Source of the DNA: an uncultured Chloroflexia bacterium
GTDB lineage: Bacteria; Chloroflexota; Anaerolineae; Anaerolineales; Anaerolineaceae
Length of the DNA: 32,000 bases
Assembly (NCBI GenBank): GCA_963704755.1
Contig: OY969938.1
Span: forward strand, 3,540,001-3,572,000
Direction: 5' to 3'
Position numbers and translations under genes: made by a program
Shown: positions 3,421-22,509 of the stretch, piece by piece
Layout: every line of letters begins with the position of its first letter
How positions within the stretch are numbered: position 1 is the first letter of the stretch
Notes under the pieces: generated by a model
What the model saw: the letters and a program-made list of their open reading frames with translations, nothing else
What the model was told of the DNA's origin: nothing
Databases searched by the model: none

Positions 3421-3431
3421 GGTTTCTCTTT

Positions 3432-3719: not shown

Positions 3720-3756
3720 TGTTTGTTCTCCTGAATTTTTTACTGTTAATCAACAG

Positions 3757-5658: not shown

Positions 5659-5661
5659 AGC

Positions 5662-6360: not shown

Positions 6361-6380
6361 TTACGTCTCACTTTCTTCCT

Positions 6381-8897: not shown

Positions 8898-8899
8898 GG

Positions 8900-9532: not shown

Positions 9533-9705
9533 GGCATTCTTCCTTCGCGTTCGTTCTCAATTGACAATTCGTTTTTCATCATCTCGATAATTTTGTCCGC
9601 CAGTTGCTCCAATTCCAGATAACCCAAAAAAGCGCATCCGGCTTGCGATGGGCTTCTTTCCCCGGCGGGTTGTTTGGGTGAAAAGGACTGGTCGATGGTT
9701 GCCAT
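9529..9705 (-). CDS. 58-aa micro-ORF (below the ORF-track cutoff), unknown function
   Basis: My translation: MATIDQSFSPKQPAGERSPSQAGCAFLGYLELEQLADKIIEMMKNELSIENEREGRMP. An AGGA lies 7 nt upstream of ATG 9705. Its TGA overlaps the next gene's ATG (ATGA at 9529-9532), which implies translational coupling. The C-terminal helix motif is shared with the end of the Pro-rich protein. Confidence 0.6.
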   Translation of the reverse strand: MATIDQSFSPKQPAGERSPSQAGCAFLGYLELEQLADKIIEMMKNELSIENEREGRMP

Positions 9706-9716
9706 AAAATTCCTGT

Positions 9717-9884
9717 TCAGGCCTGGCCGATGCGCTTGTTAATATTCGCAATTTGTCGCACCCATTCCCGGCGGTTTTGGTGCGGCAAATTGTAGATCGT
9801 ATCCAGGTCCCAATGAAAATGGTAGGCGATGTAGGCTACCTCCTCATTAATCTGCTCGAGGGGGTAGCCTTTTATTCCCCCCCC
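9717..9884 (-). CDS. -1 frame extension of the chaperone gene (E-prime-like, DUF6760-like sequence), reachable by slippage on the G8 run
   Basis: The -1 frame reads GGG GGG GGA ATA AAA GGC TAC... = GGGIKGYPLEQINEEVAYIAYHFHWDLDTIYNLPHQNRREWVRQIANINKRIGQA*. The frame is closed by TAA at 9899-9897 just upstream. It has no ATG/GTG start, and the only in-frame TTG lies ~90 nt into the frame. The sequence looks protein-like and, from memory, resembles small conserved proteins of CIS loci. Confidence 0.55.
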   Translation of the reverse strand, partial: GGGIKGYPLEQINEEVAYIAYHFHWDLDTIYNLPHQNRREWVRQIANINKRIGQA

Positions 9885-10240
9885 AGTTTTGCAAGGTTAA
9901 TCTCCATTTCTTTGTTGCAATGGGGGCAGGTAATGACCCGTATTACCGAGGCATTCTCGTTAATTTGCTGGTAAAAGGCCTGCAAGAACGCGATATCGGA
10001 AGCAAACAGGTTTTCGATCACGTTGGTGGTAATGTGTTTCAGCGTTCCCAGGCTGGTAATGACCCGGGTCAGCAGGACGATCGAAAGGTAGGCCTCGTTG
10101 GTCTGCACGCGCATATCGTTGAGCGGCGTGATTTCGTCCATGGCGGTAGCCAGGCGCATGGTGCCTTGCTTGTGGAGCGTGCCTTCTTTGTCCACGTAGC
10201 CGATGGGCAGTTCAAAATCGAATTCGGTTTGAATGGTCAT
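9872..10240 (-). CDS. Tail assembly chaperone-like protein (P2 gpE-like), short form
   Basis: 122 aa. FELPIGYVDKEGTLHKQGTMRLATAMDEI resembles the gpE-type chaperone opening (short beta hairpin plus l.lR.pta.D). There is a CPHC pair near the end. The ORF ends ...AAA CTG GGG GGG GAA TAA, inside a G8 run. It sits after the tube genes, as in P2-type tails. Confidence 0.7.
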   Translation of the reverse strand: MTIQTEFDFELPIGYVDKEGTLHKQGTMRLATAMDEITPLNDMRVQTNEAYLSIVLLTRVITSLGTLKHITTNVIENLFASDIAFLQAFYQQINENASVIRVITCPHCNKEMEINLAKLGGE

Positions 10241-10251
10241 AAAAATAATAC

Positions 10252-10731
10252 CTAATGTTCGAGATCTTCACGATCGATCGATTCGCATACGAGCGTGATC
10301 GAAAACTGGGCCCGGTTGGTAACCGATTGATCGAAATTAAACCCGGATAATTTCGATGGCCAGACGTTAATCAAGTGCCACTGGACGACGGGTTTGTATT
10401 CGTTTTTTACATAGGCGTTCAGGCTGATGGTTGCATTCTTGCGCGCGCCAAAGATATCGCCTTTTACGACCTGGTTGAACCAGTTGTACAGATCGGCAGT
10501 CTTTCCGTAGCCGCTTTCCAAGGTGATCGGCTGGTTCTTGAGCGGGCCGGGGATAAGCAACGTAGAAAATCCGCCATTCTCGTACACCACCTGGTGGTGA
10601 ATGACGTCGATTTCTACTTCTCCCCCGGAGATCTTGTCAAAGACTCCTAACTGCACGCCTTCAATTTCCAGCGTGTAATGGATATTCAGGGGTGAAATTA
10701 TGTGATCGGAAGGCTGCTTGGTATCTGCCAT
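10252..10731 (-). CDS. Tube protein paralogue 2, T4 gp19 family
   Basis: 159 aa. HYTLEIEGVQLGVFDKISGGEVEIDVIHHQVV..GGFSTLLIPGPLKNQPITLESGYGKTADLYNWF and VQWHLINVWPSKLSGFNFD match the gp19/Afp1-type pattern. Confidence 0.88.
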   Translation of the reverse strand: MADTKQPSDHIISPLNIHYTLEIEGVQLGVFDKISGGEVEIDVIHHQVVYENGGFSTLLIPGPLKNQPITLESGYGKTADLYNWFNQVVKGDIFGARKNATISLNAYVKNEYKPVVQWHLINVWPSKLSGFNFDQSVTNRAQFSITLVCESIDREDLEH

Positions 10732-10749
10732 AATTTAGTAGGAAAAGGC

Positions 10750-10776
10750 ATGGGCGGACTTCCCTTGTCCGCCCAT
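10750..10776 (-). terminator. GC-rich 10-bp hairpin plus short U-tract between tube 1 and tube 2 (candidate attenuator or 3'-end stabiliser)
   Basis: atgggcggac (10750-10759) pairs perfectly with gtccgcccat (10767-10776), with a 7-nt loop. On the minus-strand RNA it is followed by GCCUUUUCCU, then by the tube-2 AUG 18 nt downstream of the stem. Confidence 0.5.
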
Positions 10777-10790
10777 ACCCCATCGGATTG

Positions 10791-11234
10791 TTAAGAAACC
10801 CGTTCCAATCCTTCGTGAACGATGGTTACATCTTCGATCATGATATTGGAGCCGGAGGAATCCATCTCAGGCCCGGAGACTTTGCTGGGCCAGGCGTTGG
10901 TGAAGTTCCAGCGGGCCGTCTCGGTGTTGTCCTGCGAGAGGGCCACGATGGAGCAGTTGGTGCGGGCGTCGTCGATCTTGCCTTCCACGACCATTTTGCG
11001 CCAATCCCAGATATCCAGGTTGGTGGTCACCCCGCGTTTGAGGGTGATCTCGGTCCAGGTGTGCCGGCCAGGGATCTTATTGATCTGGGTCTCGCCGTTT
11101 TCACCGGTCACTTTTTGTTCGATGACCTCGGTCTCGGAACCAATACCGGTTACATTGGTGAAATAACCGCTTAATTTCCCTTCGATTTCCAGGGCAAATT
11201 TAAATGCAACAAGTGGATCTTCTCTGTCTGCCAT
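10791..11234 (-). CDS. Major tube protein, T4 gp19 family (Afp1/Cis1-like)
   Basis: 147 aa. DPLVAFKFALEIEGKLSGYFTNVTGIGSETEVIEQKV...IPGRHTWTEITLKRGVTTNLDIWDWR...RWNFTNAWPSKVSGPEMD is a textbook gp19/TIGR02241 tube signature. It starts 15 nt after the sheath stop, with a GAGG RBS. Confidence 0.92.
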   Translation of the reverse strand: MADREDPLVAFKFALEIEGKLSGYFTNVTGIGSETEVIEQKVTGENGETQINKIPGRHTWTEITLKRGVTTNLDIWDWRKMVVEGKIDDARTNCSIVALSQDNTETARWNFTNAWPSKVSGPEMDSSGSNIMIEDVTIVHEGLERVS

Positions 11235-11249
11235 GCTTCTTTACCTCAC

Positions 11250-12890
11250 TTATTCGGAATCGGGTCCAGCCCACTGGCTGATGCGGAAAATGACGAATTC
11301 GGCGGGTTTGACTGGCGACATACCGATTTCGATAATCAGGCGGCCAAGATCGCGCGATTCGGGTGGGTTCAGCTCATCGTCGCAGCGGACGTAGAAAGCC
11401 TCGTCGGGAGTGCTGCCGAACAAGGCGCCGTCGCGCCAGACTGTGCGCAGGAAAGCGCCCACGTCGCGGCGGACGCGCGCCCACAGTTTGCGGTTGTTCG
11501 GTTCGAAGACGACCCATTGGGTGCCGTTTTCGATCGATTTTTCGACGTAGTTGAACAGCCGGCGTACGTTGATGTAGCGCCAGGACGGGTTGCTGGAGAG
11601 GGTGCGCGCGCCCCAGATGCGGATACCGCGGCCGGGGAAGGAGCGGATGCAGTTCACGCCGATCGGGTTGAGGGTATCCTGCTCGCCTTTGGTGATCTGG
11701 AAGCCCACGCCGATGGCGCCCTGGACGACTTCGTTGGCCGGGGCCTTGTGCACGCCGCGGGTGTTGTCGTTGCGGGCCCACACGCCGGCCACGTGGCCGG
11801 AGGGCGGGATGGCAACCACCTGGCTGGTGGCCGAGTCCATCACCTCGATCCAGGGGTAGTACATGGCCGCGTAGCTGGAATCAAAGCCGGTGACGTCCAT
11901 GCGCCATTGTTTGATCTCCTGGGGGGTCAGGTCGGGCGGGCAGTCGAGGATGGCGACCCGGTCGCCGAGCGATTCGCAGTGGGCGATCAGGGCGGTCTGG
12001 ATGGCCTTGACCAGGGTCAGGTCGAGTTTTTCGCCGGGCATGGTGGTCATCAGGTCGGGGACGCAGACCATGGTGACGTCATCCAGCGCTTCCAACCCGC
12101 CGATACCGGTCCGTTTGGCCACTTCACCTTCGAATTCGCCGCTGGTGGTGGTGGGCAGGAGTTTTTTGTCGATGTTCAAAGATTGTTCCTGCTCTTTGGG
12201 CATCACTTTTTCGAGGGAGGCTTCCGCGTCCAGGACATCCAGGACGACGTATTTGGGCATCGCATTGTTCTTGAAAGCCACCTGGGTGAGGACCTGGTTT
12301 TCGACTTTGGTCGGGCGCAGTTTGACTTCGCGGAACGATTCCAGTTCCATCCAGCCGCCGTCGCTCTTCAGGCGCTCTACCACCAGGGTGAAGGACTGGT
12401 CGGCCGGGTCGATGGCTTTCTTTTCGGCATCGGCCGGGGCTTTGTCGTCCTTCTTGGGGGCGGGCAGTTGGGGAATATCCTGGACGCGCACGCGCATCTT
12501 GAGCGCATCCACCCCCGCCAGTCGGGCGCGGACGGCGATGGCGGGTTTACCCTGGCTGTTGAGCAGGGTAGCTTCAGCCTTGGGGAAATTGCGTACACTG
12601 ACGACGTAGCAGCGCGAGCCGCCGTTCATGAAATAGCCATAGACCGATTGGGGCAGGTAAGCGCCAGGGACAAAGCTCCCGTACCGTTCGGTGAACTGAG
12701 TCCAGTTGGTGATGAGCTGGGGTTTATTCAGCAGGTCTTCGACGACCACTTCGCCGTTGATTTTGCGGGCCATTTCGGCTTTTTCGGTGAAGCCGACAAA
12801 AGCTGCCATGGCCGTCCCAACGCCTTCGATCGGTTTTGGGCCACGGTCAACTTCTTCTACATAAACTCCAGGGGATAGATATTCTGGCAT
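11250..12890 (-). CDS. Contractile tail sheath protein (Afp2/Cis2-like)
   Basis: 546 aa. MPEYLSPGVYVEEVDRGPKPIEGVGTAMAAFVGFTEKA is the canonical sheath N-terminus. The C-terminal NCIRSFPGRGIRIWGARTLS...WRYINVRRLFNYVEKSI is the Phage_sheath_1C motif. A strong GGAGG RBS lies 5 nt before the ATG. Confidence 0.95.
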   Translation of the reverse strand: MPEYLSPGVYVEEVDRGPKPIEGVGTAMAAFVGFTEKAEMARKINGEVVVEDLLNKPQLITNWTQFTERYGSFVPGAYLPQSVYGYFMNGGSRCYVVSVRNFPKAEATLLNSQGKPAIAVRARLAGVDALKMRVRVQDIPQLPAPKKDDKAPADAEKKAIDPADQSFTLVVERLKSDGGWMELESFREVKLRPTKVENQVLTQVAFKNNAMPKYVVLDVLDAEASLEKVMPKEQEQSLNIDKKLLPTTTSGEFEGEVAKRTGIGGLEALDDVTMVCVPDLMTTMPGEKLDLTLVKAIQTALIAHCESLGDRVAILDCPPDLTPQEIKQWRMDVTGFDSSYAAMYYPWIEVMDSATSQVVAIPPSGHVAGVWARNDNTRGVHKAPANEVVQGAIGVGFQITKGEQDTLNPIGVNCIRSFPGRGIRIWGARTLSSNPSWRYINVRRLFNYVEKSIENGTQWVVFEPNNRKLWARVRRDVGAFLRTVWRDGALFGSTPDEAFYVRCDDELNPPESRDLGRLIIEIGMSPVKPAEFVIFRISQWAGPDSE

Positions 12891-13204: not shown

Positions 13205-14029
13205 CTAAACTTCAATCGATAATTGTTCACCCATAGGGACGGTAAATTTTGTCCTTCTCAGGATCCGATCATCTATCAAAACAGAAATATGATAGGTGCC
13301 CGCCATTACCTTGGGAATAGAAAATTGACCATCCTTGATCTCGATTTTGGTATTCCTTTCTTCCCAGGTCAGCGTCAATGCATTGGGGTCGTATTTTGTA
13401 GATTTGATTTCGCCTTTGACCATCCAATACCGTCCGGCGATGGCTTCGTCGTTGCCGGAGCGATCCGTCTGGCGAATGCTCACCTCGGCCGATTGGACCA
13501 TGGGTGAAATTACCGGGCGATAAGGATCGATCAGCAGGGTCACTTTTACGGTGAAACCCGGACGGTATTTGTTATTGAGCGTGGTCCAGAATTCGCCCCA
13601 GTTCCTGTTTTCGTCCGCTTGAGCGGTGGTCAGCGGTATGGGCAGGGGCTGGCTGATCATGCCCTCGGCAAAGACGTCTTCCGGCAGGAAAGGCGTTCGC
13701 AATAAGGCCATAAGCGCCAGGCCGAGCAGGTGATGCTGGTCCTGCTCTTTCTTGCTCCAGGCGGTCACCAGGTAGGTCAGGTCGATACGGGCCGGGTTAC
13801 GGCGGATCTCGGCCCGGCCGTCGGGCAGGGCATGTTTGCTGAACTGTTCGGAGCCGCGTAACTGGCGGTTTTCCTGAATATCATAGAGAAACAAGTTCAG
13901 GGTAGGTTTGACTACTCTGGCCGACCATTCCCCGGTGGGCTGATCGAATAAGATATCGATTTCGCTTCTCGTGATGGGTATCTCTTTGATCAGCAGGTTT
14001 TTCAGGGTCTCGTCGAGTGAGTCAAACAT
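13205..14029 (-). CDS. DUF4255 / Pvc16_N tail terminator-cap protein (Afp16/Cis16-like) with extra C-terminal beta domain
   Basis: 274 aa. LDETLKNLLIKEIP....IDILFDQPTGEW......PTLNLFLYDIQENRQLR....RIDLTYLVTAWSKKEQDQHHLLGLALMALLRTPFLPEDVF is the DUF4255 pattern. The C-terminal ~80 aa (GEIKS...DGQFSIPKVMAGTYHISVLIDD) looks like a carboxypeptidase-regulatory-type beta sandwich. Confidence 0.9.
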   Translation of the reverse strand: MFDSLDETLKNLLIKEIPITRSEIDILFDQPTGEWSARVVKPTLNLFLYDIQENRQLRGSEQFSKHALPDGRAEIRRNPARIDLTYLVTAWSKKEQDQHHLLGLALMALLRTPFLPEDVFAEGMISQPLPIPLTTAQADENRNWGEFWTTLNNKYRPGFTVKVTLLIDPYRPVISPMVQSAEVSIRQTDRSGNDEAIAGRYWMVKGEIKSTKYDPNALTLTWEERNTKIEIKDGQFSIPKVMAGTYHISVLIDDRILRRTKFTVPMGEQLSIEV

Positions 14030-14046: not shown

Positions 14047-16704
14047 TTAGAATGTGGCGTTACGGGCCAGCAGGATATTCTTGATGGCTTCTTTTCTAAC
14101 CGCCGGATCATCCGTGGTGAAGACCGTGTTCAGATCCTGGAATTCAGCCGTGGCGTGCAGCAAGCGGCTGATGGATAGCTCGGGCATCAGGTCGTGCCGG
14201 ACGGATTTGGGCGCATTACCGGAGGTCAACAAGTCGTTGTACACATCGTTGGACTCTTTGGCTACATCACTGACGCGGACGTTCAGAGTGGTTTTCTTGC
14301 CGGTCTCGTCCGTGGAATCCAGGCTCCTCATCCGGTCCTGACGGTATTCCTTGATGTTTCGGTAACCGGATTGGTCGAATTTGCGGCCGACGGTGAAATA
14401 ATTCTTGATCTTGTTGACAATCGGCTTGGCGATGCTGGCGCCCAGGTTGGTGAGCATACCGGCCAGCTTGAGTTTCGAGCCAATATCGCCGCCGATGCCA
14501 TAGCCTACCGATTGGGTCACATTCCCCAGGGTTTGAATGGAATCGTTGGTAATATCCAGCGCCTGGCCGGAAGCTTTTTTGCCCTGGGCGTCTGCCAGGG
14601 CGGCTTTGAGCCGGGGGAACACACTTTGCTCTTTGCGCCGGCCGAAATCGGTCAGGTGCCGGCTGGGGACATACTTGATATCCAGGATCTTTTTCTTGCG
14701 GCTGTTCGCCAGGCCGGCTTTGGTGCTGCGAGCTGCCAGGCTTAACCCGCTGGCCCCGGCGGCTACGGCATATTTGGCGGTACCCAGGCCGTTCCCGGCC
14801 GTGCTTTGCCCGATGCTCAACGAAGGATTATCCAGCCTGTCCTTAAAGGTGACGCCAGCCTGCCCAAAACCCAGGCCGGCGTTGGTCAGGCCTAGCAACC
14901 CGTTCAACATGTGGTAAGAGGCTTCTGTTCCCGATTGCCACATGGCGCTGCCGCTGATGCTATCGTGGAAACTGCGGGCCTGGTGCAGCCTGGCCCAGTT
15001 TGCGCCGGATTGGGTCAGCGCACCGACGCCCTGGATGGCGGTGACCGAGTTGGACATGATTCCACCGGCCAGTTCGGTGCCCATCCCGGCCCCGTTGCCG
15101 ATGTGCAGGTGGTCGGAGCCGAGCATGTTGAGATATTCCAGGCTCTTGACACCGGCACCTGCGCCGCTGATGAGCGGCAGCAGCCAGGAGTTTTGCATCA
15201 TATCGGCCGCGCCGAAGGCCCGGTCGGTGTGCGAATTGCGACCGCGGCCTTCGCCCCAGGTTGAGCCGATGAAACCGCTTTTGAGCGTGCCCTTGATGCC
15301 GGGATCCTCATAGCGAGTGGAGCCGACACCCTGGCGCTCGTACCCGCCGGTCAGGGTGACGATGTGATTAATCGATACCCCTTTGGCCGCCAGCGCATCG
15401 AAGTCACGGGCCTTGATGAGCGTAATGACCTCGTCGACGTCCTCAGGACCTAATTTTCCCAGGTTCCCGCGCCCAACATCTCGCATGACTTTCAATAAAG
15501 ATCCGGAGGGTATTTGAGCTAACGCAGCTTGTTCGGAAACGTAGGTTTTAATGCCTTCTTCGAGTTCGGGATCGGGGGCTGGAGGTCTGGTCTGGCTTGA
15601 GCCCGATTCGTTTGGGGCAGTGCGCGGTTTGAACCGTTTGGTCAGTACTGCTTGCGGGTCAAAGGCAGTATCCTTCTTGGCCCGCATGGGTGGTTCAGGC
15701 GGTTTGCGTCTGGGCGGTTGGGAAAAATCTATGGCAGGTTGGCGATGATGATGGCGCCGGGGTGGAGGCGGAGGCCGCCGTTTCGGCATGGGGATGGTGG
15801 GGTCAAAACCTTGCTCTGATTGTTGCTCTTCTGGCGGTTTACTCAAATTCAGGTCAGCCTGAATTTGAGCGACATCGACCAGGTAGAGCTTGAGCGTAGT
15901 CATGTCAAACTCGTCGATATTGCGACCTTCCATTAATATCGCTGAAATGACGGGATCTTTTTGAGCATTGCGCTTGGCCGTCCAGCGTTTGACCATTTCT
16001 TCGGTCACGCTGCCCCCAAAGGCAGCGGCAATGGCGCCGAAGTCCAGTTCGCGCTGGATGGCGCTGCCCACGGCGGAAGAGCCGGCGCTAGAAAGGCCGC
16101 CCCCACTTTGGGCGTTGCGGGCAGCCTGCTGTTCTTCGGCCGTATCCGGGTCGCCTAACTTTAGCCTGCCGGAGGGGGCTCGGCCGCCTTGTTGCACCAC
16201 GTGGGTCAATTCGTGTTTAAGGGTCTGTTGGCCGCGCTGGGATTCGGGCGCGAAGGCGCCCTGGCGGAAAAAGATGTCCGGGCCGGTGGTGAAGGCCCGC
16301 GCGCTGATCTGGCGGCTGAGGGCATCGGCGTTCTGGTCGTGGTGCAGCCGGACGCCGCTGAAATCGGTGTTGAAGCTGTGCTCCAGGTCCTCGCGTAAGG
16401 CCGGGGGCAGCGGCTGCCCCGATCCGCGTGCATTCTGGATCGCGGTAGAAATGCGATTGTTCAGGATGCCCTGTCGATCGGTAACCGGCTCACGCTGGAC
16501 GGTGTTGGAGGCCAGCCAACCATTAACGGCAATATTCCCCGCCTTCTCTTGCAGGCGGAGGATATCTGCGGGTGTGGCCGATTGGGGATCGCTAAGCGCG
16601 TTTTGTAATTCGGATTGGTTCTCTTGCGACGCGTTCTCCCCGGCTCTCTGGGGCTTTTGTTTGGTTTGGGAAACTTCTTTGGTTTTTAATTGTCCATATT
16701 TCAT
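14047..16704 (-). CDS. DUF4157 (HExxH) domain protein with Pro-rich linker and Gly-rich C-terminal region; candidate CIS effector
   Basis: 885 aa. The DUF4157 core is GQPLPPALREDLEHSFNTDFSGVRLHHDQNADALSRQISARAFTTGPDIFFRQGAF...TLKHELTHVVQQGG, with HELTH encoded at 16215-16201. The linker is PKRRPPPPPRRHHHRQPAIDFSQPPRRKPPEPP. The C-terminal ~500 aa has glycine-zipper-like stretches and no domain I recognise. It is the first gene of the operon. Confidence 0.9.
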   Translation of the reverse strand: MKYGQLKTKEVSQTKQKPQRAGENASQENQSELQNALSDPQSATPADILRLQEKAGNIAVNGWLASNTVQREPVTDRQGILNNRISTAIQNARGSGQPLPPALREDLEHSFNTDFSGVRLHHDQNADALSRQISARAFTTGPDIFFRQGAFAPESQRGQQTLKHELTHVVQQGGRAPSGRLKLGDPDTAEEQQAARNAQSGGGLSSAGSSAVGSAIQRELDFGAIAAAFGGSVTEEMVKRWTAKRNAQKDPVISAILMEGRNIDEFDMTTLKLYLVDVAQIQADLNLSKPPEEQQSEQGFDPTIPMPKRRPPPPPRRHHHRQPAIDFSQPPRRKPPEPPMRAKKDTAFDPQAVLTKRFKPRTAPNESGSSQTRPPAPDPELEEGIKTYVSEQAALAQIPSGSLLKVMRDVGRGNLGKLGPEDVDEVITLIKARDFDALAAKGVSINHIVTLTGGYERQGVGSTRYEDPGIKGTLKSGFIGSTWGEGRGRNSHTDRAFGAADMMQNSWLLPLISGAGAGVKSLEYLNMLGSDHLHIGNGAGMGTELAGGIMSNSVTAIQGVGALTQSGANWARLHQARSFHDSISGSAMWQSGTEASYHMLNGLLGLTNAGLGFGQAGVTFKDRLDNPSLSIGQSTAGNGLGTAKYAVAAGASGLSLAARSTKAGLANSRKKKILDIKYVPSRHLTDFGRRKEQSVFPRLKAALADAQGKKASGQALDITNDSIQTLGNVTQSVGYGIGGDIGSKLKLAGMLTNLGASIAKPIVNKIKNYFTVGRKFDQSGYRNIKEYRQDRMRSLDSTDETGKKTTLNVRVSDVAKESNDVYNDLLTSGNAPKSVRHDLMPELSISRLLHATAEFQDLNTVFTTDDPAVRKEAIKNILLARNATF

Positions 16705-16961: not shown

Positions 16962-19900
16962 GTGTTAAAATATGGGGGATCTGCCGTTACCGGTTTCAAG
17001 TCCAACAAGGCCAGGGCGCTATTGGCTTACCTGGTGCTGGAACCCCAATTTGCCCATTCACGCAATTCCCTGGCCGGCCTGCTTTGGCCGGACCTGCCCA
17101 ACGAAGCGGCCAGCGCCAATTTACGCTCGGTACTGGCCAATTTACACAGGGTATTCGCAAATTACCTTGGCCCGGATATTTCGGTGCTCCGGGTGGATTA
17201 CAACGAGGTCCAGATCAACCGCGAAGAAATCCATTGCGACGTGATCGATTTCGAGGAGCGGGTCGAGCAAAACGATTTCAAGGCCGCGGCCGACCTGTAC
17301 CAGGGCCGCCTGTTGGACGGTTTCGCTTCTGGCAGTACGCCATTCGACGACTGGGTGCAGATCAAGACCGAGATTTTCCATCAAAAGGGCCTGTATGTGC
17401 TGCAAACTCTGTCCGATGAACTGCTGGACCAGGGCGACCTGGCCAACAGTATGGCCTACGCCAGGCGCGTGCTGGAATTAGAGCCCGGCCTGGAAGAGGC
17501 TCACCAGCAGATGATTTACCTGTTCGCGCTCAACGGCCAACGCAGCGCCGCCCTCTTGCAATTCGAACAGTGCAAACGCCTGCTGACCAAAGAACTTTCG
17601 GTAGCGCCGAGTGCCGAGACCCTGAAGCTGGTGGACAAAATTCGTACGGGCAGTATTTCTCAGCAAGGCGGCGTACGGGGCAAGCTCGAAGAAACGGACC
17701 GGGCAGCCCCGGAGCAGGCCAATAACGGGATCGTGGCCCGCGAGGTTGAACTGGCCTGGCTGGAAAACCGGCTCGAATCCGCGATCCAGGGGCAGGGCAA
17801 GGTGCTGTTTATCACCGGCGATTCGGGCAGCGGCAAAACCACCCTGGCAAAGGCTTTCGTTGCGCGGGCATTTACCCTCTCCGACAATATCATCGCCCTG
17901 AAAGGTACCTGTTCCATCCCCGGCGGGGTGGGCTCGCCCTACCAGCCTTTCCGCGAGATTTTGCTCAACCTGACCCGCCTGGAAGAACGTTTCTGGAACC
18001 TGGACGAATATCCCCAACAATTTGCCGGCCAGCTGATGGAAGCCCGCCGGATCGTTTTACGGTTTCTGGAACAGCAGTACCCGGATTTCAACGCGATGCT
18101 GCTTTCGCCCCCGGTGCCGCTGCCCAGCGGCACGGCGGATGGGCCGGATCCGTTTGCGGTTGCCCTCCAGACCGGCCGGCTGTTCGACCAATTTGTCCAG
18201 TTGTTTTCCAGGCTTTCTGACCATTACCCCTTGCTGTTCGTTCTGGATGATTTGCAGTGGGCCGATGAAGAATCGCTGCAACTGCTCTCTTATTTGGGCC
18301 GGCAATTGAACGGGCTGGCGGTGCTGCTGGTCGGGATTTACCGCACCGAGGAGGTCTCCGCCGGGCGGATGAACCGGCGCCATCCGATCGAGACGGTGGT
18401 GAATGAGCTCAAGCGCAATTACGGTGAGATCTGCCTGGACTTGAACAACACCGATGGCCGCAGTTTTGTCGGCGCCTACCTGAACAATTTCCCCAACCAG
18501 TTGGGGCAAAATTTTAGCGAGACGCTCTACCAGCATACCGGTGGGCACGCGCTGTTCACGGTTGAATTGATCGAGCAGCTCAAGCATTCCGGCGGCTTGG
18601 TCAAGAACGAGCGCGGATTGTGGATCGAAGGCGAAGACCTGGATTGGGACAAGCTGCCGGACCGGGTCGAATCGGTCGCAGCGGAGCGGGTCAATCGCCT
18701 GCCGCCGTTCTGGCAGACGGTGCTGAAAACGGCCAGCGTGGCGGGTGACCGCTTCATCGCCGAAGTGCTGGCGGATGTACTCAAAAAAGACGAGCGCATC
18801 ATCGTCCAGGGGTTGAGCCAGGTGGCTGCCCGGCAGCATGGCCTGGTGGTATCTTCGAGCACGCGGGTAGCCGGGGACCGGCGGTTGACCCTGTACCGCT
18901 TCCGCTACCATATATTTCAGCAATATTTATACAAAAGCCTGGACGCTGCCGAACTGGCTTTGCTGCACGGGCTGGTCGGCGATTTACTCGAGGCGCTCAC
19001 GGCCGACGGCGGCAGCGAGCCCGTCTCGCTGGCAGCCAACCTGGCCTGGCATTACGAAGAGGCCGGCAATTACAAGAAGGCTATTCATTACAACATCATG
19101 GCCGGCCGCGAAGCCAACCGCCTGGGGGCCATGAACAAGGCCGCCGGCCATTTCAATCACAGCCTGGACCTGCTCGAGAAGATCCCGGCGGATGGCGAGC
19201 ACATCAACCAGAAGCTGAGCGTGTTGAGCGAACTGGACCTGACCTACCTGGCCCTGTACGGTTGGGGCAGCCAGGAGCGCGGCGAGATCTTCGAGCGGGC
19301 CTACCGGCTATATGGCCAGCAGGGCGATATTTCGAAGCAGTTGCGCTGCCTGGGCGAGATAGCCAACAATGGCCTGGGCCGGCGGGACTACGAGAAGACC
19401 ATCGAGCGCTGCCAGAGTCTGCTGCAGCAGTCGCTGAAATTGGGCAACCCCAGCTTCACCATGCTGGCCAAGAAAATCATGGGGGAATGTTACAGCTTCA
19501 GCGGCAAATTGACCTTGGGGCGGCGCTATCTTAAGGAAATTTTGCCTTATCTGATTGAATGCCCGCAGGACCCGGCTTTTCAGTATCAGGGCGGCGATGA
19601 TCGCACATCCCGGATTTACCTGTGCTACAACCTGCTGATCTCCGGGTATCCCGACCAGTCCAGGCGCTGTTTGCAGGAGAACCTGGCCCTGCTGGAAAAG
19701 GTGCCCCAGCCTTTCGTGCGGGGTTTTTGCCTGACCCTCAATGGCATCGACCAGAGCATCATCCTGCACGATGAAGAGGCGGTCTCGAACTACGCCGGGC
19801 AGTTATATGAACTGACCCAACAGGGCGAATATACCGTTTTTCAACCTTGGGTCAGGTTTGCCGAGGTGTGGAAACACGCCAGCGCCAGTTTGGACCGGGA

Positions 19901-20387
19901 TCACCTGGATGCGTTGTGGGCCTGGGTGAACACCTACCTGCCGCACGCCAGCACGACCGGATTCCTCTTCTCGTTTTGTGCGCTGGCCGGCCTGCTAATC
20001 GACGCCGGCAATGTCGCTGAAAGCCAAAAGATCATCGACCTGATTTTGAAAAGCGTCGAGGGCCTCTCGACGAGCTCGCTCTGGCCGCTCGTTCTACGCC
20101 TGAAAGGCGAACACTGCCAGTTGAGCGGGAAACTTGATGAAGCCGAAAAGTGCTTCTTGCAATCGATCCAGGTTGCCCAGGAGCAGGAGGCCAAATTGTG
20201 GGAGTTGACCGCGGTGACCAACCTGTACAAGCTGAAACAGCAGCAAGGCAAAGAGGCGGTGGTACTGCCGATGCTTTCCCGTGTTTATGCCTGGTTTAGT
20301 GAGGGCCTGGACACGGCCCCGCTCAAGACTGCCCGGGATTTGCTGGAAGAATACGAGGCTATTCCTGGCCCTGGCGTTGCCCGTTAG
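16962..20387 (+). CDS. SARP-family (winged-helix + BTAD) / P-loop NTPase / TPR large transcriptional regulator
   Basis: 1141 aa from GTG 16962. The winged-helix and BTAD region reads TGFKSNKARALLAYLVLEP...LAGLLWPD...ANLRSVLANLHRV....DVIDFEE......AAADLYQGRLLDGF....FDDWV...LELEPGLEEAHQQMIYLFALNGQRSAALLQFEQCKRLLTKELSVAPSAET. Walker A is ITGDSGSGKTTLA and Walker B is LLFVLDDLQWADEESL. The C-terminal third is TPR-like. The first ~15 codons of the domain appear to sit in another frame (see findings). Confidence 0.9.
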   Translation: MLKYGGSAVTGFKSNKARALLAYLVLEPQFAHSRNSLAGLLWPDLPNEAASANLRSVLANLHRVFANYLGPDISVLRVDYNEVQINREEIHCDVIDFEERVEQNDFKAAADLYQGRLLDGFASGSTPFDDWVQIKTEIFHQKGLYVLQTLSDELLDQGDLANSMAYARRVLELEPGLEEAHQQMIYLFALNGQRSAALLQFEQCKRLLTKELSVAPSAETLKLVDKIRTGSISQQGGVRGKLEETDRAAPEQANNGIVAREVELAWLENRLESAIQGQGKVLFITGDSGSGKTTLAKAFVARAFTLSDNIIALKGTCSIPGGVGSPYQPFREILLNLTRLEERFWNLDEYPQQFAGQLMEARRIVLRFLEQQYPDFNAMLLSPPVPLPSGTADGPDPFAVALQTGRLFDQFVQLFSRLSDHYPLLFVLDDLQWADEESLQLLSYLGRQLNGLAVLLVGIYRTEEVSAGRMNRRHPIETVVNELKRNYGEICLDLNNTDGRSFVGAYLNNFPNQLGQNFSETLYQHTGGHALFTVELIEQLKHSGGLVKNERGLWIEGEDLDWDKLPDRVESVAAERVNRLPPFWQTVLKTASVAGDRFIAEVLADVLKKDERIIVQGLSQVAARQHGLVVSSSTRVAGDRRLTLYRFRYHIFQQYLYKSLDAAELALLHGLVGDLLEALTADGGSEPVSLAANLAWHYEEAGNYKKAIHYNIMAGREANRLGAMNKAAGHFNHSLDLLEKIPADGEHINQKLSVLSELDLTYLALYGWGSQERGEIFERAYRLYGQQGDISKQLRCLGEIANNGLGRRDYEKTIERCQSLLQQSLKLGNPSFTMLAKKIMGECYSFSGKLTLGRRYLKEILPYLIECPQDPAFQYQGGDDRTSRIYLCYNLLISGYPDQSRRCLQENLALLEKVPQPFVRGFCLTLNGIDQSIILHDEEAVSNYAGQLYELTQQGEYTVFQPWVRFAEVWKHASASLDRDHLDALWAWVNTYLPHASTTGFLFSFCALAGLLIDAGNVAESQKIIDLILKSVEGLSTSSLWPLVLRLKGEHCQLSGKLDEAEKCFLQSIQVAQEQEAKLWELTAVTNLYKLKQQQGKEAVVLPMLSRVYAWFSEGLDTAPLKTARDLLEEYEAIPGPGVAR

Positions 20388-22509
20388 GGTAAAGGTAGTC
20401 CTCTTCTTTAATAAAGCGGCCCATCTTGAGCATTTCCTGGCGGCAGGCTCGCAGCAAATGGTCCATACCCATCACGCCGCCGGATTGGGCTGCCAGAAAC
20501 GCGGCCGAGACGAGGATATTGCGGATGTTACCGCCGGCGAGGGTGTATTTGCGGGCCAGGAATTCCCAATCGATATCCGCGGCGACCGGCAGGCTTTCCG
20601 GTAGGAGCACATTCCAGATTTTGGCCCGCTGGGTTTCGTCGGGCAGGGGAAAATTGACGATGAAGTTGATCCGGCGGGTGAAGGCCTCGTCCATGTTGGC
20701 GCGCAGGTTGGTGGCCAGGATGGTCACACCCCCGTAGGTTTCCATGCGCTGCAGCAGGTAGCCAACCTCGATGTTAGCGTAACGGTCGTGGGCATCTTTC
20801 ACTTCGGAGCGCTTGCCGAAAATCGCGTCGGCCTCGTCGAAGAACAGCACGGCGTTGCTGTTCTGGGCTTCCTCGAAGATTTTCTCCAGGTTCTTTTCGG
20901 TCTCGCCGATGTATTTACTGACCACGTTGGAGAGGTTGATGCGGTACAGGTCGAGCTGGAGCTCGTTGGCGATGATCTGGGCCGCCAGGGTCTTGCCTGT
21001 GCCCGGGTCGCCGGAAAACAGGGCCGAGATGCCCGCGCTGGAAGTGAGCTTTTTCCCCAGCCCCCACTGCTCGAGCACCAGCGCGCGGTAACGCATCATC
21101 GAGATGATGTCGCTGAGGGTGTGCAGTTCTTCGTCCGGCAGGATGATGTCGTCCCAGGTGTAGCGCGGCTCGATCTTTTGGGCCAGCTCGTTGAGGTGAT
21201 GGGCGGACTGCTGGCGGGCGGCGAAAAAGAGGTCCTCGCGTGAGAAGGGCTCGCCGCTCTGGAAGGCGGCGTTTTGGACGGTAAAAACGGCGTTTTCGAT
21301 CTGGCCGCTGGTGAGCACGAACTGCCCGGCGATATCACGCAGGGTTTCGGCGGGGATCGACTGGCCGGCCAGGGCCTGTTCCCACAACCGGGCCCGTTCC
21401 AGGCTGGAGGGCAGTTCGAACTGGACTCGATAGACCAGCCGGCTGCCCTTGCGCGAGATGCGCCAGGGTGTAGGCGTACCCAGGATAAATATGCCGGCGA
21501 ACACGGCCATTTCCTCGAGGATCTCGTCCGGAATGAAGCCGTCCGCATCCAGCACCCTGTCCCAGCCGCGGATGTACAGGATCGCGTCCAACAGGCAGGC
21601 GTCGCGGATGAGCAGGCGCAAGGTCGCCAGGGTAAAGGGACTTTCGGCGCAGACCTCGTTGAGATCCACCTGCAGCAGGGGCATATTGAAGCGCTGAGCT
21701 ACCTTTTTGGCGGCCAGGAGCTGGCGGTCCAGGTCTGGCCCGACGAAGGACAGGAAAGGTCGTTTTTCGAAAATACGCTGCCAGTCCAGGGAAAAATCCT
21801 GGGCGTATGGGCTGGCGGAAATGGCCCGGTCTAACTGGTCCCATAATTCCAGGTGCAGCCAGTTTTTTTCTGGAAAATATTGGCCCACCAGCCAGGAGAT
21901 CAGGGCGGGCGAGACTTCGAAGAGCTGGCTCAGGCGCGGCTCCTGCCAGTCGGTGCCGGGATTGACCGGACGCAGCAGGTGATACTTGACCAGGGTGCCC
22001 CTGGCGCTGAATACACCCAGCCAGGTCAGGCGGTTGAACTCGGGCCGGTCCTCGACCAGCAGATCGAGGATCAGGTTGACGCCGGCCTGCTTTTTGGTGA
22101 CGTCGTTTTGCAGGTAACCGAAAATGCGTTCGTAGCGCAGGTCCAGGGTGGGCAGCAGGCAGATCAGGAAAGCGTGGTATTCGAAATCCGACAGGCCGAA
22201 GTATTCCCGCAGCAGGGGCAGGCGCAGTTTAACATTCCTGGACTGGGCCTGCACTTCGATCTGGCGGCAGGCGGCCTGGGCATTCTCGATGAAGGCCGCC
22301 GCGGACGAATTGTCGAGCCCTTTGGCGACCACCGGTGCCTGGCTTAATGCCTGCGCCTCTTGCGGAGAAATGTACAGGCCGCGGAAGCGGTCGTTGGCTT
22401 CCTGGCCGGTTTGCAAAGCCGCATCCAGGGCGCGTTTGACCAGCAGGTCAATTTGCGAGATCTCAATGGAGAGATAACGCAGGTTCAGGTCTTCGGGTAT
22501 AGTATCCAT
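20359..22509 (-). CDS. AAA+ ATPase, Afp15/Cis15-type CIS assembly ATPase
   Basis: 716 aa, with a long N-terminal domain and a single C-terminal AAA+ module. Walker A is FSGDPGTGKTLAA and Walker B is VLFFDEADAIFGKR. The second region of homology is VTILATNLRANMDEAFTRRINF. Its 3' end overlaps the convergent SARP gene by 29 nt. Confidence 0.92.
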   Translation of the reverse strand: MDTIPEDLNLRYLSIEISQIDLLVKRALDAALQTGQEANDRFRGLYISPQEAQALSQAPVVAKGLDNSSAAAFIENAQAACRQIEVQAQSRNVKLRLPLLREYFGLSDFEYHAFLICLLPTLDLRYERIFGYLQNDVTKKQAGVNLILDLLVEDRPEFNRLTWLGVFSARGTLVKYHLLRPVNPGTDWQEPRLSQLFEVSPALISWLVGQYFPEKNWLHLELWDQLDRAISASPYAQDFSLDWQRIFEKRPFLSFVGPDLDRQLLAAKKVAQRFNMPLLQVDLNEVCAESPFTLATLRLLIRDACLLDAILYIRGWDRVLDADGFIPDEILEEMAVFAGIFILGTPTPWRISRKGSRLVYRVQFELPSSLERARLWEQALAGQSIPAETLRDIAGQFVLTSGQIENAVFTVQNAAFQSGEPFSREDLFFAARQQSAHHLNELAQKIEPRYTWDDIILPDEELHTLSDIISMMRYRALVLEQWGLGKKLTSSAGISALFSGDPGTGKTLAAQIIANELQLDLYRINLSNVVSKYIGETEKNLEKIFEEAQNSNAVLFFDEADAIFGKRSEVKDAHDRYANIEVGYLLQRMETYGGVTILATNLRANMDEAFTRRINFIVNFPLPDETQRAKIWNVLLPESLPVAADIDWEFLARKYTLAGGNIRNILVSAAFLAAQSGGVMGMDHLLRACRQEMLKMGRFIKEEDYLYPNGQRQGQE

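Follow-up and report, generated by a model that had tools for sequence, protein, structure and literature searches.

A DUF4157 protein encoded beside the cap gene of a Chloroflexota CIS is a candidate cargo with a possibly membrane-perturbing C-terminal region

The gene at 14047-16704 of the window (the whole stretch analysed, 32,000 nt of contig OY969938.1 from an uncultured Chloroflexia bacterium) is predicted to encode a CIS cargo with a membrane-perturbing C-terminal payload, and this reading as a whole is given a probability of about 0.45. The protein is likely to be a loaded cargo or effector of the CIS, and a membrane action of the payload, judged separately, is rather doubtful. We infer its loading, its ejection and any membrane activity. 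A conserved leader, a DUF4157 domain and a swappable C-terminal domain together make up a cargo layout that is already known. An earlier sequence-only reading had proposed a candidate effector, and the comparison of related slots strengthened this proposal (shared leader, DUF4157, unrelated C-terminal parts). The slot architecture is that of Cgo1/Cgo2, which are experimentally loaded in AlgoCIS.

The gene, its locus and its relatives

The minus strand of 14047-16704 carries an intact 885-aa ORF with an ATG start, and the plus-strand translation of the same interval is broken up by stops throughout. Full-length orthologues, 38-49% identical and encoded in syntenic loci, show that the gene is real. 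The arrangement reported earlier was recovered: the gene is the first of the CIS structural operon and lies right upstream of the cap gene, and no small immunity-like ORF adjoins it. The spaces separating it from the cap gene on one side and from the divergent BTAD/AAA_16/TPR regulator on the other are too small for ORFs of at least 25 aa. The DUF4157 gene and this regulator share a 257-nt intergenic region, and the regulator was found in the same place in loci L001, L002, L003 and L085.

By Pfam, the locus is a complete CIS with cap, sheath, CIS_tube/LysM protein, VgrG-like spike, Baseplate_J, AAA ATPase and three gp19-type tube paralogues (Table 1). The CIS lineage is the Chloroflexota/Actinobacteria type, and the sheath is ~50% identical to Streptomyces CIS sheaths. 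The AAA ATPase, whose gene sits next to those for DUF4157 and the cap in related loci by the dozen, is presumed to be the cargo loader, by analogy with work on Alg15/Pvc15 (bioRxiv 10.64898/2026.05.27.728243; PMC11495950). The motif (T/A)[VI]QRE occurred both around DUF4157 and nine times in the 838-aa protein at the tape-measure position (0.84 expected), which hints at a functional link between the two proteins.

Table 1. Positions of the DUF4157 gene, its encoded parts and the other CIS genes in the window
Feature	Position (nt)	Strand	Basis or remark
Complete DUF4157 protein gene, 885 aa	14047..16704	-	ORF list and translation; orthologues P0002-P0008 full-length
N-terminal region, aa 1-97	16414..16704	-	Polar, basic, few aromatics, largely disordered
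Conserved leader helix ATPADILRLQEKAGNIAVNGWL, aa 43-64, motif LxLQxxxGNxAV	16513..16578	-	Leader HMM
DUF4157/eCIS_core domain, aa 98-174	16183..16413	-	PF13699 E 1.9e-28; AF2 pLDDT ~70
Helical middle domain, family-specific, aa 216-290	15835..16059	-	AF2 pLDDT 73-85; invariant AIQRE motif precedes
Disordered Pro/Arg/His-rich linker, aa 291-378	15571..15834	-	pLDDT <50; 24% Pro; pI 10
Subdomain a, small helical bundle, aa 379-457	15334..15570	-	AF2 pLDDT 75-84, both models
Gly/Ala/Ser-rich cationic region, aa 538-771	14392..15093	-	Five long predicted helices
Invariant glycine zipper G734-x3-G738-x3-G742, GYGIGGDIG	14479..14505	-	8-sequence alignment
Subdomain c, compact alpha/beta, aa 784-880	14065..14355	-	AF2 pLDDT 80-89
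Pvc16_N tail terminator/cap gene	13205..14029	-	PF14065 E 2.7e-31; 17 nt downstream of DUF4157 gene
BTAD-AAA_16-TPR (SARP-like) regulator	16962..20387	+	Pfam; divergent from DUF4157 gene
WHD and AAA ATPase, counterpart of Afp15/Pvc15/Alg15	20359..22509	-	PF22977 and PF00004
Remaining CIS structural operon	752..12890	-	Pfam
Sheath	11250-12890	-	Pfam
Tube, two genes	10791-11234 and 10252-10731	-	Pfam
Tail-assembly-chaperone-like ORF	9872-10240	-	PHROG 508 match of 122-aa ORF
Tube-initiator-like gene	8900-9532	-	Pfam
Pro/Ala-rich ORF at tape-measure position, 838 aa	6381-8897	-	
CIS_tube/LysM protein	5662-6360	-	Pfam
VgrG-like spike	3757-5658	-	Pfam
Baseplate_J	752-2854	-	Pfam

In all 17 close relatives (Anaerolineae and related Chloroflexota MAGs with at least 55% sheath identity and a readable region upstream of the cap gene), the slot upstream of the cap gene was occupied by a DUF4157 protein; the nearest detected ORF upstream of Pvc16_N was a DUF4157 ORF of 238-1663 aa in 17/17 cases, at gaps of 2 nt to 2.2 kb. 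By BLAST, the regions after DUF4157 of 33 slot proteins formed at least 24 groups unrelated to one another, and the C-terminal part was swapped for unrelated sequence even where the sheath was still 63-74% identical. The longest slot protein (locus L014, 1663 aa) combines DUF4157 with a non-specific endonuclease domain at its C-terminal end. Compared with locus L001, identity was 46% for the DUF4157 protein, 81% for the sheath, 86% for the tube, 63% for the cap and 64% for the ATPase.

The C-terminal family is very rare: eight full-length members (seven clusters at 50% identity) were found among 1.84 billion cluster representatives, homologues beyond these eight were not detected, and every member is fused to DUF4157. 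Synteny was kept in all six members with readable surrounding DNA.

N-terminal leader, DUF4157 module and linker

The N-terminal region (aa 1-97) has a GRAVY of -0.98, is rich in Q/N/S/A, with AF2 pLDDT <50 for aa 1-31 and 56-81, and carries a net charge of +1 to +6 in 8/8 members of the C-terminal family. It is a putative loading sequence, by analogy with the N-terminal region of Cgo1/Cgo2 (bioRxiv 10.64898/2026.05.27.728243). The HMM built from aa 30-97, in which the conserved leader itself spans aa 30-66, matched same-slot DUF4157 proteins with unrelated C-terminal parts (L005-L009, L011, L013 and L051) and also three ORFs without a DUF4157 match (190 aa in L009, 603 aa in L012 and 1116 aa in L044).

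The DUF4157 domain had been placed at about aa 95-175 with an intact HELTHVVQQ, and the PF13699 match agrees closely with this. The motif lies at aa 164-172 (nt 16189-16215), and H164, E165 and H168 were invariant in 8/8 family members. PF13699 is now named eCIS_core in Pfam, DUF4157 being the older name. The domain is a strong effector marker: as a core domain specific to eCIS, it precedes the toxic part of many toxins (PMC8213781); it occurs in 36% of known eCIS toxins versus 0.06% of other proteins, and 983 of 1130 predicted DUF4157 toxins have no further annotated domain (PMC11297309).

The middle-domain HMM matched family members only. When aa 1-300 were used as the query, coverage ended before the middle domain in the non-family relatives listed, with one exception among them, the 240-aa P0071, by coverage alone (83%). 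The Pro/His linker noted earlier is present and disordered, with PKRRPPPPPRRHHHRQ (aa 307-322, nt 15739-15786) and PPRRKPPEPP (aa 330-339, nt 15688-15717) both found verbatim, but it is largely an insertion specific to the 885-aa protein (aa 291-385, 95 aa versus 36-71 aa in orthologues, 13-31% identity). Likewise, the DUF4157 module, the linker and an uncharacterised C-terminal region of the proposed three-part layout hold, but the protein has more than three parts, namely the leader (aa 30-66), the middle domain (aa 216-290) and a split C-terminal region.

The C-terminal region

The C-terminal region consists of two subdomains, confidently folded in the AF2 models, around a long helical cationic stretch. 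In subdomain a, PSG (aa 399-401), R433/F435 and GVSI were invariant in the 8-sequence alignment, with MPSG in 7/8 members and KARDFD around R433/F435 in most. The stretch at aa 538-771 (pI 9.5-10.3 and net charge +7 to +17 in 8/8 members) is predicted to form helices H538-577, H581-625, H639-675, H686-735 and H741-771, for which pLDDT is mostly low or medium (mean 54-56, at an alignment depth of only 5-8 sequences). Subdomain c contains the Arg-rich motif GYRNxxEYRxDRMRSL and the conserved tail REAIKNILLxR, and residues R782, E786, Y787, R788, R791, R793, R870 and R881 in or near it were invariant in the eight sequences.

The C-terminal ~500 aa had been described as lacking a known toxin family, and this was borne out: no match was found in Pfam, NCBIfam or PHROGs, in PDB sequences, whether the query was the protein alone or a profile, or, at significance, in Foldseek searches against the PDB; neither subdomain a nor subdomain c had a fold match. 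The PDB profile and Foldseek searches also gave no structural CIS component as a match, and the best BFVD fold match was below significance.

The four "zipper" stretches quoted earlier were each present verbatim, LISGAGAGV at aa 511-519, GNGAGMGTELAGGIMS at aa 536-551, GLLGLTNAGLGFGQAGV at aa 602-618 and GYGIGGDIGSKLKLAGMLTNLGASIA at aa 734-759, and three of the four fall in aa 538-771. The label "glycine-zipper-rich" stands for the Gly-rich composition but not for motif enrichment, as the counts of [GAS]xxx[GAS]xxx[GAS], GxxxG and GxxxGxxxG were all within shuffle expectation. The zipper argument for membrane activity is also weakened by hydropathy, the top 19-residue Kyte-Doolittle window being 1.13 (1.2-1.63 in orthologues) against the usual cut-off of 1.6 for a transmembrane helix, and by the residues D740, K744 and K746 inside the zipper segment. 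In its favour are the cationic helices, the conserved Gly and the invariant zipper, one of two GxxxGxxxG occurrences in the whole protein. GLGFG (aa 610-614) was also invariant across the eight sequences. Within aa 538-771, Gly was invariant at 11/34 positions versus 23/200 for other residues (p = 0.003). Gly was 3.4-3.7 times as likely as other residues to be invariant. Invariant His or Cys was absent from the C-terminal region, and only three Asp and three Glu were invariant across 500 residues. Among the slot C-terminal parts, 8/33 had a transmembrane-grade segment and 12/33 a Gly-rich low-charge segment.

Points in favour of a membrane role are the invariant zipper, the preferential conservation of Gly, the cationic helices, the recurring hydrophobic or Gly-rich slot segments, and the transmembrane segments of effectors of the related Streptomyces CIS (PMC10066040, PMC11126660, PMC13277306), effectors that occupy the lumen (PMC10066040). 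Tde1 and TelE permeabilise membranes by means of glycine zippers (PMC10240207, PMC10434224). An immunity gene is usual for characterised glycine-zipper antibacterial toxins (PMC10434224), so its absence next to the gene counts against a membrane toxin.

Proposed cargo function and known systems

In the proposed mechanism, the disordered polar N-terminal region with the LxLQxxxGNxAV helix would act as a system-specific loading signal, which the AAA+ ATPase (20359-22509) would recognise, threading the protein into the inner-tube lumen. DUF4157 would be a generic eCIS-core adaptor or processing module alongside such cargo, and aa 216-885 a lineage-specific payload expelled upon sheath contraction. 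This payload looks non-enzymatic and mainly alpha-helical, and the most likely action of its cationic, Gly-conserving helices with GxxxGxxxG would be to attach to a lipid membrane and disturb it. The payload could then be a toxin, or could serve in translocation as the hydrophobic segments of phage tape-measure proteins do.

A loaded effector whose C-terminal toxin or modulator has a soluble intracellular target, either a novel-fold enzyme or a nucleic-acid- or protein-binding domain, is an unlikely but appreciable alternative, in which the Gly-rich helices would be mere helix packing or a compact or unfoldable form suiting the tube lumen. Among validated DUF4157 toxins, enzymes are in the majority (ADP-ribosyltransferase, deaminase, nuclease, transglutaminase; PMC8213781, PMC11297309), aa 379-457 and 784-880 are confidently folded and non-hydrophobic, the hydropathy is below the transmembrane threshold, and the Arg/Tyr/Glu-rich invariant motif and basic helices would suit nucleic acids or phospholipid head groups equally. 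However, the few invariant acidic residues and the lack of invariant His or Cys give no catalytic signature, no enzyme family or fold was matched, and Gly is the residue most often conserved. That the protein is a phage-derived, tape-measure-related effector or translocator of the Tme/Sle1 class, whose Gly-rich helices would line the lumen of the tube and later open a passage through the target membrane for the protein itself or co-packaged cargo, is quite improbable. Its best BFVD match, to a tape-measure protein from a Klebsiella phage, has E 0.019 and probability 0.93, and further matches are tape-measure, minor tail and internal virion proteins, but TM-scores are ≤0.24 with a low-confidence model, and long low-confidence helices would match such proteins anyway. 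In Tme, tape-measure homology occurs together with DUF4157 and predicted transmembrane helices (PMC11126660), the Tde1 glycine-zipper region has tape-measure homologues (PMC10240207), and the same-slot L014 protein is Tme-like; against this, PHROGs and Pfam (to E 5) and tblastn against 50,697 phage records (E to 10) gave no tape-measure similarity, hhalign against the L014 protein gave 0.2% probability, the tape-measure position is taken by the separate 838-aa ORF beside the tail-assembly-chaperone-like gene, the DUF4157 gene has no nuclease domain, and the cluster's largest ORF is another one.

It is also rather improbable that the protein, instead of being an ejected toxin, is a lineage-specific accessory or assembly factor. 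DUF4157 would then serve as an adaptor or a protease, and another component would be tethered, chaperoned or processed by the C-terminal region; this component could be the cap, the VQRE-repeat protein at the tape-measure position or a separate effector whose gene lies beyond the window. The DUF4157 slot is kept beside the cap gene in 17/17 close loci, several slots hold only a small DUF4157 protein (238-311 aa) resembling Sle2, the adaptor that links Sle1 with the spike complex (PMC13277306), the QRE motif is shared with the tape-measure-position protein, and Tme, which also contains DUF4157, is recovered together with spike and tube-initiator proteins on purification (PMC11126660). The collinear, syntenic retention of the whole protein in its own sub-lineage (6/6 loci) would also fit a conserved accessory component over a variable toxin. 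However, C-terminal replacement at 63-74% sheath identity does not look like the behaviour of a protein that pairs structurally with conserved components, the DUF4157 protein changes faster than every structural protein compared, no solved CIS component was matched, and Cgo1/Cgo2, with the same layout, are cargo without which assembly proceeds (PMC8894135).

Like the glycine-zipper effectors, namely the Tde1 N-terminus (T6SS; PMC10240207), TelE (T7SSb LXG; PMC10434224), and Tse4, CdzC/D and VacA as cited therein, the candidate payload has a conserved GxxxGxxxG in an all-helical context, with Gly as the most conserved residue, and is associated with a secretion or injection machine. Their zippers lie in hydrophobic transmembrane-grade segments, and toxicity is lost upon a single-glycine mutation, whereas the present candidate segment is polar or charged (hydropathy ≤1.13); the antibacterial toxins have adjacent immunity genes, unlike the present locus. 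For Sco4256-4258, lineage-specific luminal cargo of the related cytoplasmic S. coelicolor CIS (PMC10066040), a dedicated immunity gene is likewise not described. They share a conserved N-terminus, variable C-termini and a membrane-interacting segment, but have a single clear transmembrane helix and, in some, ricin-type domains, and are not reported to carry DUF4157; for them, a role in regulated producer death is demonstrated.

Tme of the S. davawensis CIS (PMC11126660) and Sle1/Sle2 of the S. lividans SLP (PMC13277306) belong to the related lineage with ~50% sheath identity and share an N-terminal DUF4157, long disordered stretches and helical hydrophobic or Gly-rich segments, although homology to the present protein is not detectable. 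Tme, a tape-measure-related endonuclease effector, is a proven effector with a terminal non-specific endonuclease domain (PMC11126660); its 2247 aa, tape-measure position, predicted transmembrane helices and EndA-like nuclease have no counterpart here. Sle1 lacks DUF4157, which Sle2 supplies in trans, whereas both are fused in the present protein. Cgo1/Cgo2 fill the AlgoCIS tube lumen, and their loading needs the N-terminal region, not DUF4157 (PMC8894135; bioRxiv 10.64898/2026.05.27.728243). They belong to a Bacteroidota CIS lineage, their sequence similarity is confined to DUF4157, and the present gene differs in lying at the 5' end beside the cap gene; loading and ejection are demonstrated for them, and for the present protein we infer both. 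In common with it, they are encoded within a CIS cluster that includes an AAA+ ATPase and have a disordered N-terminal region, DUF4157 with HExxH and then a variable, more ordered C-terminal domain, which is large in the 1228-aa Cgo2 as it is here.

Operon context of the DUF4157 gene

Every amino acid string quoted in the sequence-only reading was present in the minus-strand translation of 14047-16704, and its description of the gene as a whole was accurate. A plus-strand reading of this interval was ruled out since the frame is full of stop codons. As had also been proposed, the gene is the first of a cap-sheath-tube-spike-baseplate operon, and the cap gene (Pvc16_N, tail terminator/cap) lies directly downstream after a gap of 17 nt. 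Pvc16_N is followed by the sheath gene, two gp19-type tube genes, a 122-aa tail-assembly-chaperone-like ORF, a third tube-like gene, an 838-aa Pro/Ala-rich ORF, a CIS_tube/LysM protein, a VgrG-like spike and Baseplate_J. On the upstream side, a 257-nt AT-rich spacer separates the DUF4157 gene from a divergent regulator. No immunity-like small ORF was found next to the gene, in agreement with the earlier statement, and scans for promoters and terminators gave nothing above the shuffle background. The features are listed in the table.

Features of the DUF4157 gene, its upstream neighbours and the encoded protein
Feature	Position	Strand	Remark
DUF4157 protein gene	14047-16704	-	ORF, 885 aa, ATG start
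BTAD-AAA_16-TPR regulator	16962-20387	+	Stands between the ATPase and DUF4157 genes in the window and in the related loci L001, L002, L003 and L085
WHD-AAA ATPase	20359-22509	-	Same strand as the operon, beyond the divergent regulator
Disordered regions	aa 1-31, 173-218, 288-378, 454-548, 721-789		Predicted (AlphaFold2)
DUF4157			Moderately confident predicted fold (AlphaFold2)
Helical middle domain	aa 220-290		Predicted (AlphaFold2)
Helical subdomain	aa 380-450		Predicted (AlphaFold2)
Five long helices	aa 538-771		Predicted, mostly low/medium confidence (AlphaFold2)
Alpha/beta subdomain	aa 790-880		Predicted (AlphaFold2)

In the other Anaerolineae loci where both the ATPase and the DUF4157 genes were found (L006-L009, L011, L013 and L018-L020), the two lie on one strand with the ATPase gene upstream, and no BTAD gene was detected between them. 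The two genes are directly adjacent in all of these loci except L018. The BTAD regulator was the fastest-diverging gene of the compared set, with 38% identity to its counterpart in L001.

The 122-aa ORF (9872-10240, minus strand) matched PHROG 508 'tail assembly chaperone' (E 8.8e-8), had no match in Pfam and was 86% identical in L001. The PHROG 508 match supports the view that the 838-aa ORF lying downstream corresponds to a tape-measure gene. Counterparts of the 122-aa ORF in related loci are followed by small ORFs, of 52 aa (DUF6760) and 57 aa. Upstream of the CIS region, two very large genes occupy 24977-31980 on the minus strand, the first encoding a 950-aa Peptidase_C25 (gingipain-type) protein (E 4.7e-84) and the second a 1384-aa protein with nine DUF11 repeats. 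An MFS transporter sits between this gene pair and the ATPase gene, and the pair has no evident link to the CIS.

Conserved N-terminal module and variable C-terminal part

The match to PF13699 (eCIS_core, 'eCIS core domain', formerly DUF4157) covers aa 98-174 with an E-value of 1.9e-28 and 98.9 bits against a gathering score of 22, spanning positions 1-77 of the 79 in the profile, and all eight family members match it. Pfam detected nothing else in the studied protein, neither a nuclease nor any other C-terminal domain. The HELTHVVQQ described earlier as intact is located at aa 164-172, and its HExxH (H164-E-L-T-H168) is invariant across the eight-sequence alignment. HE[LIVMA]xH occurs in 128 of 131 proteins compared, most of which, with few exceptions, are DUF4157 relatives. 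The preceding leader (aa 1-97) is a putative loading sequence by analogy, with a GRAVY of -0.98, few aromatic residues and pLDDT values below 50 at aa 1-31 and 56-81 in the AlphaFold2 model. A motif LxLQxxxGNxAV in a basic polar context was recognisable in the leaders of many DUF4157 proteins encoded upstream of cap genes.

In the studied protein, TVQRE (aa 68-72, nt 16489-16503) and AIQRE (aa 215-219, nt 16048-16062) flank DUF4157 at invariant positions. The 838-aa ORF at the tape-measure position (6381-8897, minus strand) contains nine copies of [VIL]QR, mostly (A/T)VQRE, compared with 0.84 predicted, and none of 2000 shuffles reached nine. The two proteins may share VQRE as a motif for recognition or cleavage. 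xVQRx or IQR motifs also recur in the slot DUF4157 proteins of L005, L009, L012 and L014, where slot denotes the gene place upstream of the cap gene. In L012 (2602-5301, plus strand), tandem acidic repeats of the type PLVQRAPEEEEELQxKP precede the DUF4157 domain, with a masked run (X) in their middle.

To place the window, sheath sequences were compared in a genome scan. The nearest relatives were from Anaerolineae and other Chloroflexota MAGs (60-74% identity), and the sheaths of Streptomyces and other Actinobacteria were near 50% identity; the window therefore probably stems from an Anaerolineae-like bacterium, and its CIS belongs to a lineage that includes the characterised Streptomyces systems. 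Module by module, HMMs of the studied protein were then run on the ORFs called in 83 loci. A sheath identity of at least 55% and a readable region upstream of the cap gene were combined in 17 loci; in all of them, the ORF detected closest to the cap gene on that side was a DUF4157 ORF (238-1663 aa, gaps of 2 nt to 2.2 kb), usually directly after the ATPase gene. The middle-domain HMM and the three C-terminal HMMs had no match outside the family. The regions after DUF4157 of 33 proteins from related loci formed at least 24 groups unrelated by BLAST, hhalign put the probability between the studied C-terminal part and other slot C-terminal parts at 4% or less, and Pfam was blank in 18 of the 19 slot C-terminal parts tested. 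Between the window and L001, identity was 81% for the sheath, 86% for the tube, 63% for the cap and 64% for the ATPase, but only 46% for the DUF4157 protein. In these sequence comparisons, a putative address label that is conserved and a payload that is apparently exchanged at a rapid rate mark the slot as one for polymorphic cargo. The proposal that the protein is a candidate effector is thus strengthened by comparative genomics.

The exception in Pfam was the slot protein of L014, an Anaerolineales MAG (1906-6897, plus strand, 1663 aa). Its coiled regions are rich in Ala and Glu, several of its helices are hydrophobic (Kyte-Doolittle 1.6-1.9), and it ends in a non-specific endonuclease domain (Endonuclea_NS_2, E 7e-8). 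This is the same architecture as that of the Streptomyces davawensis effector Tme (PMC11126660).

The C-terminal part of the studied protein is very rare. When aa 200-885 were compared with 5.8 billion proteins in a word-indexed search, only four homologues came back (41-43% identity, 812-821 aa), all with an N-terminal DUF4157. With an HMMER profile run exhaustively over 1.84 billion cluster representatives, nine proteins reached E <=0.001, namely five full-length proteins (813-885 aa), three fragments and one spurious repeat-protein match. Seven of these are counted as cluster representatives of the C-terminal family, five full-length and two fragments; the third fragment (P0009) comes from the L003 gene, which is full-length but split, and corresponds to its N-terminal half. 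A scan of 185,579 GTDB species-representative genomes with the C-terminal alignment pattern found none. The eight full-length family sequences align end to end except in the Pro/Arg/His linker, which is hardly conserved and has 95 aa in the studied protein against 36-71 aa elsewhere. All six family members with readable surrounding DNA share the order of ATPase, divergent regulator, DUF4157 gene, cap, sheath and tube, the shorter contigs showing only the part that they cover.

The L003 orthologue (10001-12436) is split into 419 and 388 aa by an in-frame TAG, which stands where relatives have a Lys codon (GTI*DKTLG vs GTIKDKTLG). Since L085, a second contig of the same long-read assembly, has split cap and tape-measure-position genes too, the split is probably an assembly error and not a real split or a pseudogene.

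Predicted structure and membrane-related features of the C-terminal region

No match to Pfam, NCBIfam or PHROGs was obtained for aa 200-885, consistent with the earlier view that the C-terminal region belongs to no recognised toxin family; for Pfam and PHROGs, every family member was scanned down to E = 5. Two AlphaFold2 models were built, one of aa 375-885 from five sequences and one of the full length from eight, and these agreed on the region calls with a low overall confidence (mean pLDDT 54 and 56). Remote-homology and structure searches of the C-terminal region, with PDB profiles and Foldseek besides Pfam and PHROGs, likewise gave no match. In the PDB, sequence searches with the single protein and the profile returned only unrelated enzymes or eIF5 (best E 0.085-0.18, the profile reaching 0.085 with unrelated enzymes). 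Foldseek against the PDB gave no match at E <=0.001 with either low-confidence model (lowest E 0.13 with the C-terminal model, 2.4 with the full-length one), and its sub-threshold matches were long-helix proteins of a generic kind, among them ABC-transporter membrane domains, BAR domains and designed bundles. For aa 379-885, no similarity to a structural CIS or phage-tail component (cap adaptor, tube, sheath, baseplate or tape measure) was seen in Foldseek-PDB with the low-confidence model, the PDB profile search, Pfam or PHROGs.

The C-terminal 500 residues contain 12% Gly, 10% Ala and 9% Ser. Enrichment of glycine-zipper motifs was rejected, as the counts of [GAS]xxx[GAS]xxx[GAS], GxxxG and GxxxGxxxG were within those of same-composition shuffles. 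Classical transmembrane helices were ruled out by hydropathy, the best 19-residue Kyte-Doolittle window scoring 1.13 against the conventional membrane-span threshold of 1.6; the maximum in orthologues was 1.2-1.63. The zipper segment GYGIGGDIGSKLKLAG contains Asp and Lys and is not in a hydrophobic membrane-spanning helix.

Across the eight sequences, G734-x3-G738-x3-G742 is invariant, which is the GxxxGxxxG pattern of glycine-zipper toxins, and G610-L-G-F-G614 is invariant as well. Glycine was invariant at 21 of 61 C-terminal positions, compared with 58 of 439 for all other residues (p = 1e-4), and no invariant His or Cys was found in this region. In each of the eight proteins, the net charge of the helical region lies between +7 and +17, and the flanking regions are neutral or acidic. 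These features fit cationic helices in tight packing, which could bind anionic membranes. For the reading of the zippers as membrane-active, the conserved GxxxGxxxG and the preferential conservation of glycines speak in favour, but motif counts at shuffle expectation and sub-threshold hydropathy make the evidence for membrane activity weaker than was implied.

Among slot proteins of L004-L083 upstream of the cap gene, a transmembrane-grade segment (19-residue Kyte-Doolittle >=1.6) was present in 8 of 33 C-terminal parts and a Gly-rich low-charge segment (>=7 Gly in a 25-mer) in 12 of 33, as counted within slot proteins only; these suggest that membrane-interacting elements recur in the cargo of this CIS lineage. 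The L009 slot protein has the transmembrane hairpin VALVSGLLCLIPGAAAGFAPIAAVASMIALVAGLC, and the L006 slot protein has the Gly-rich segment FGLGIAGAALSGLGIAGGI.

Predicted role and comparison with known systems

The DUF4157 protein is predicted to be luminal cargo, with a probability of about 0.7. The ATPase of the locus would recognise the N-terminal leader and thread the protein into the tube, DUF4157 would travel along as an adaptor or processing module, and the family-specific aa 216-885 would be the payload, released on contraction. This payload looks non-enzymatic. The preferred mode of action, held tentatively, is that it binds and perturbs membranes via cationic, glycine-packed helices; glycine zippers mediate membrane permeabilisation in Tde1 and TelE (PMC10240207, PMC10434224). 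A soluble target may be acted on instead.

The protein may also have a non-ejected accessory or adaptor role, as does the small DUF4157 protein Sle2, which bridges the partly membrane-associated Sle1 to the spike complex (PMC13277306); the exchange of C-terminal parts in the slot argues for cargo. A tape-measure-derived translocator may be considered as well. The top match in a BFVD fold search was a phage tape-measure protein (E 0.019, TM 0.24, below significance), other tape-measure and internal virion proteins were among the weak matches, and the zipper region of Tde1 has tape-measure homologues (PMC10240207). Weak fold matches of this kind are to be expected for any long-helix model, and tape-measure sequence homology was found neither with PHROGs or Pfam at E up to 5 nor in 50,697 phage records, which were searched by tblastn up to E 10.

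A wider joint reading, which extends the membrane-perturbing payload, is considered improbable. The C-terminal region would be the first of a new class of helical-hairpin modules, cationic and with conserved glycines, which need no classical transmembrane segment to insert into or permeabilise membranes. Together with the unrelated hydrophobic or Gly-rich slot C-terminal parts in Chloroflexota and Actinobacteria CIS loci, it would mean that the cargo delivered by this lineage is mainly membrane-targeting. The membrane acted on might be that of the producer itself, in regulated cell death, by analogy with the cytoplasmic Streptomyces CIS, and the shared VQRE would connect the cargo with the protein at the tape-measure position, as a site that the HExxH module of DUF4157 recognises or cleaves in both.

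If the protein is loaded cargo, a new and very rare payload family would be added to the eCIS effector catalogue. To our knowledge, no CIS has been characterised in Chloroflexota (Anaerolineae-like). The fixed slot between the ATPase and cap genes, with a conserved leader, DUF4157 and a freely exchanged C-terminal part, gives a simple rule by which many further candidate effectors can be harvested, and the leader plus DUF4157 is a natural cassette with which the loading of foreign proteins might be attempted. Should the C-terminal region act on membranes in spite of its sub-threshold hydrophobicity, a broader range of sequence features would predict membrane-targeting toxins. What is new here is a very rare C-terminal family inside a well-known kind of protein. 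Of the by-products, two are of most use: the definition of the variable DUF4157 slot in CIS loci of the Chloroflexota type, and the VQRE motif, which the protein has in common with the one at the tape-measure position.

DUF4157 is an eCIS-specific core domain that is N-terminal to many toxins (PMC8213781, PMC11297309). Of 1130 predicted DUF4157 toxins, 983 have no annotated C-terminal domain (PMC11297309). As most predicted eCIS toxins were already known to be DUF4157 proteins with an unannotated C-terminus, the finding is incremental and not surprising. In the cytoplasmic Streptomyces CIS that mediates cell death, Sco4256-4258, each with a single transmembrane helix, fill the lumen (PMC10066040). 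Tme combines DUF4157, predicted transmembrane helices, tape-measure homology and a nuclease (PMC11126660). The studied protein resembles Tme in its N-terminal DUF4157 but has neither predicted transmembrane helices nor a nuclease domain, and its gene is upstream of the cap gene, whereas the tape-measure position is held by the separate 838-aa ORF. In AlgoCIS, Cgo1 and Cgo2 consist of a disordered N-terminal region, DUF4157 and a C-terminal domain, occupy the lumen of the tube and are gone after contraction (PMC8894135); their loading needs the N-terminal region and is brought about by Alg15, an AAA+ protein, and DUF4157 is dispensable (bioRxiv 10.64898/2026.05.27.728243). The studied protein matches such cargo in its location in a CIS cluster that includes an AAA+ ATPase and in its variable C-terminal domain.
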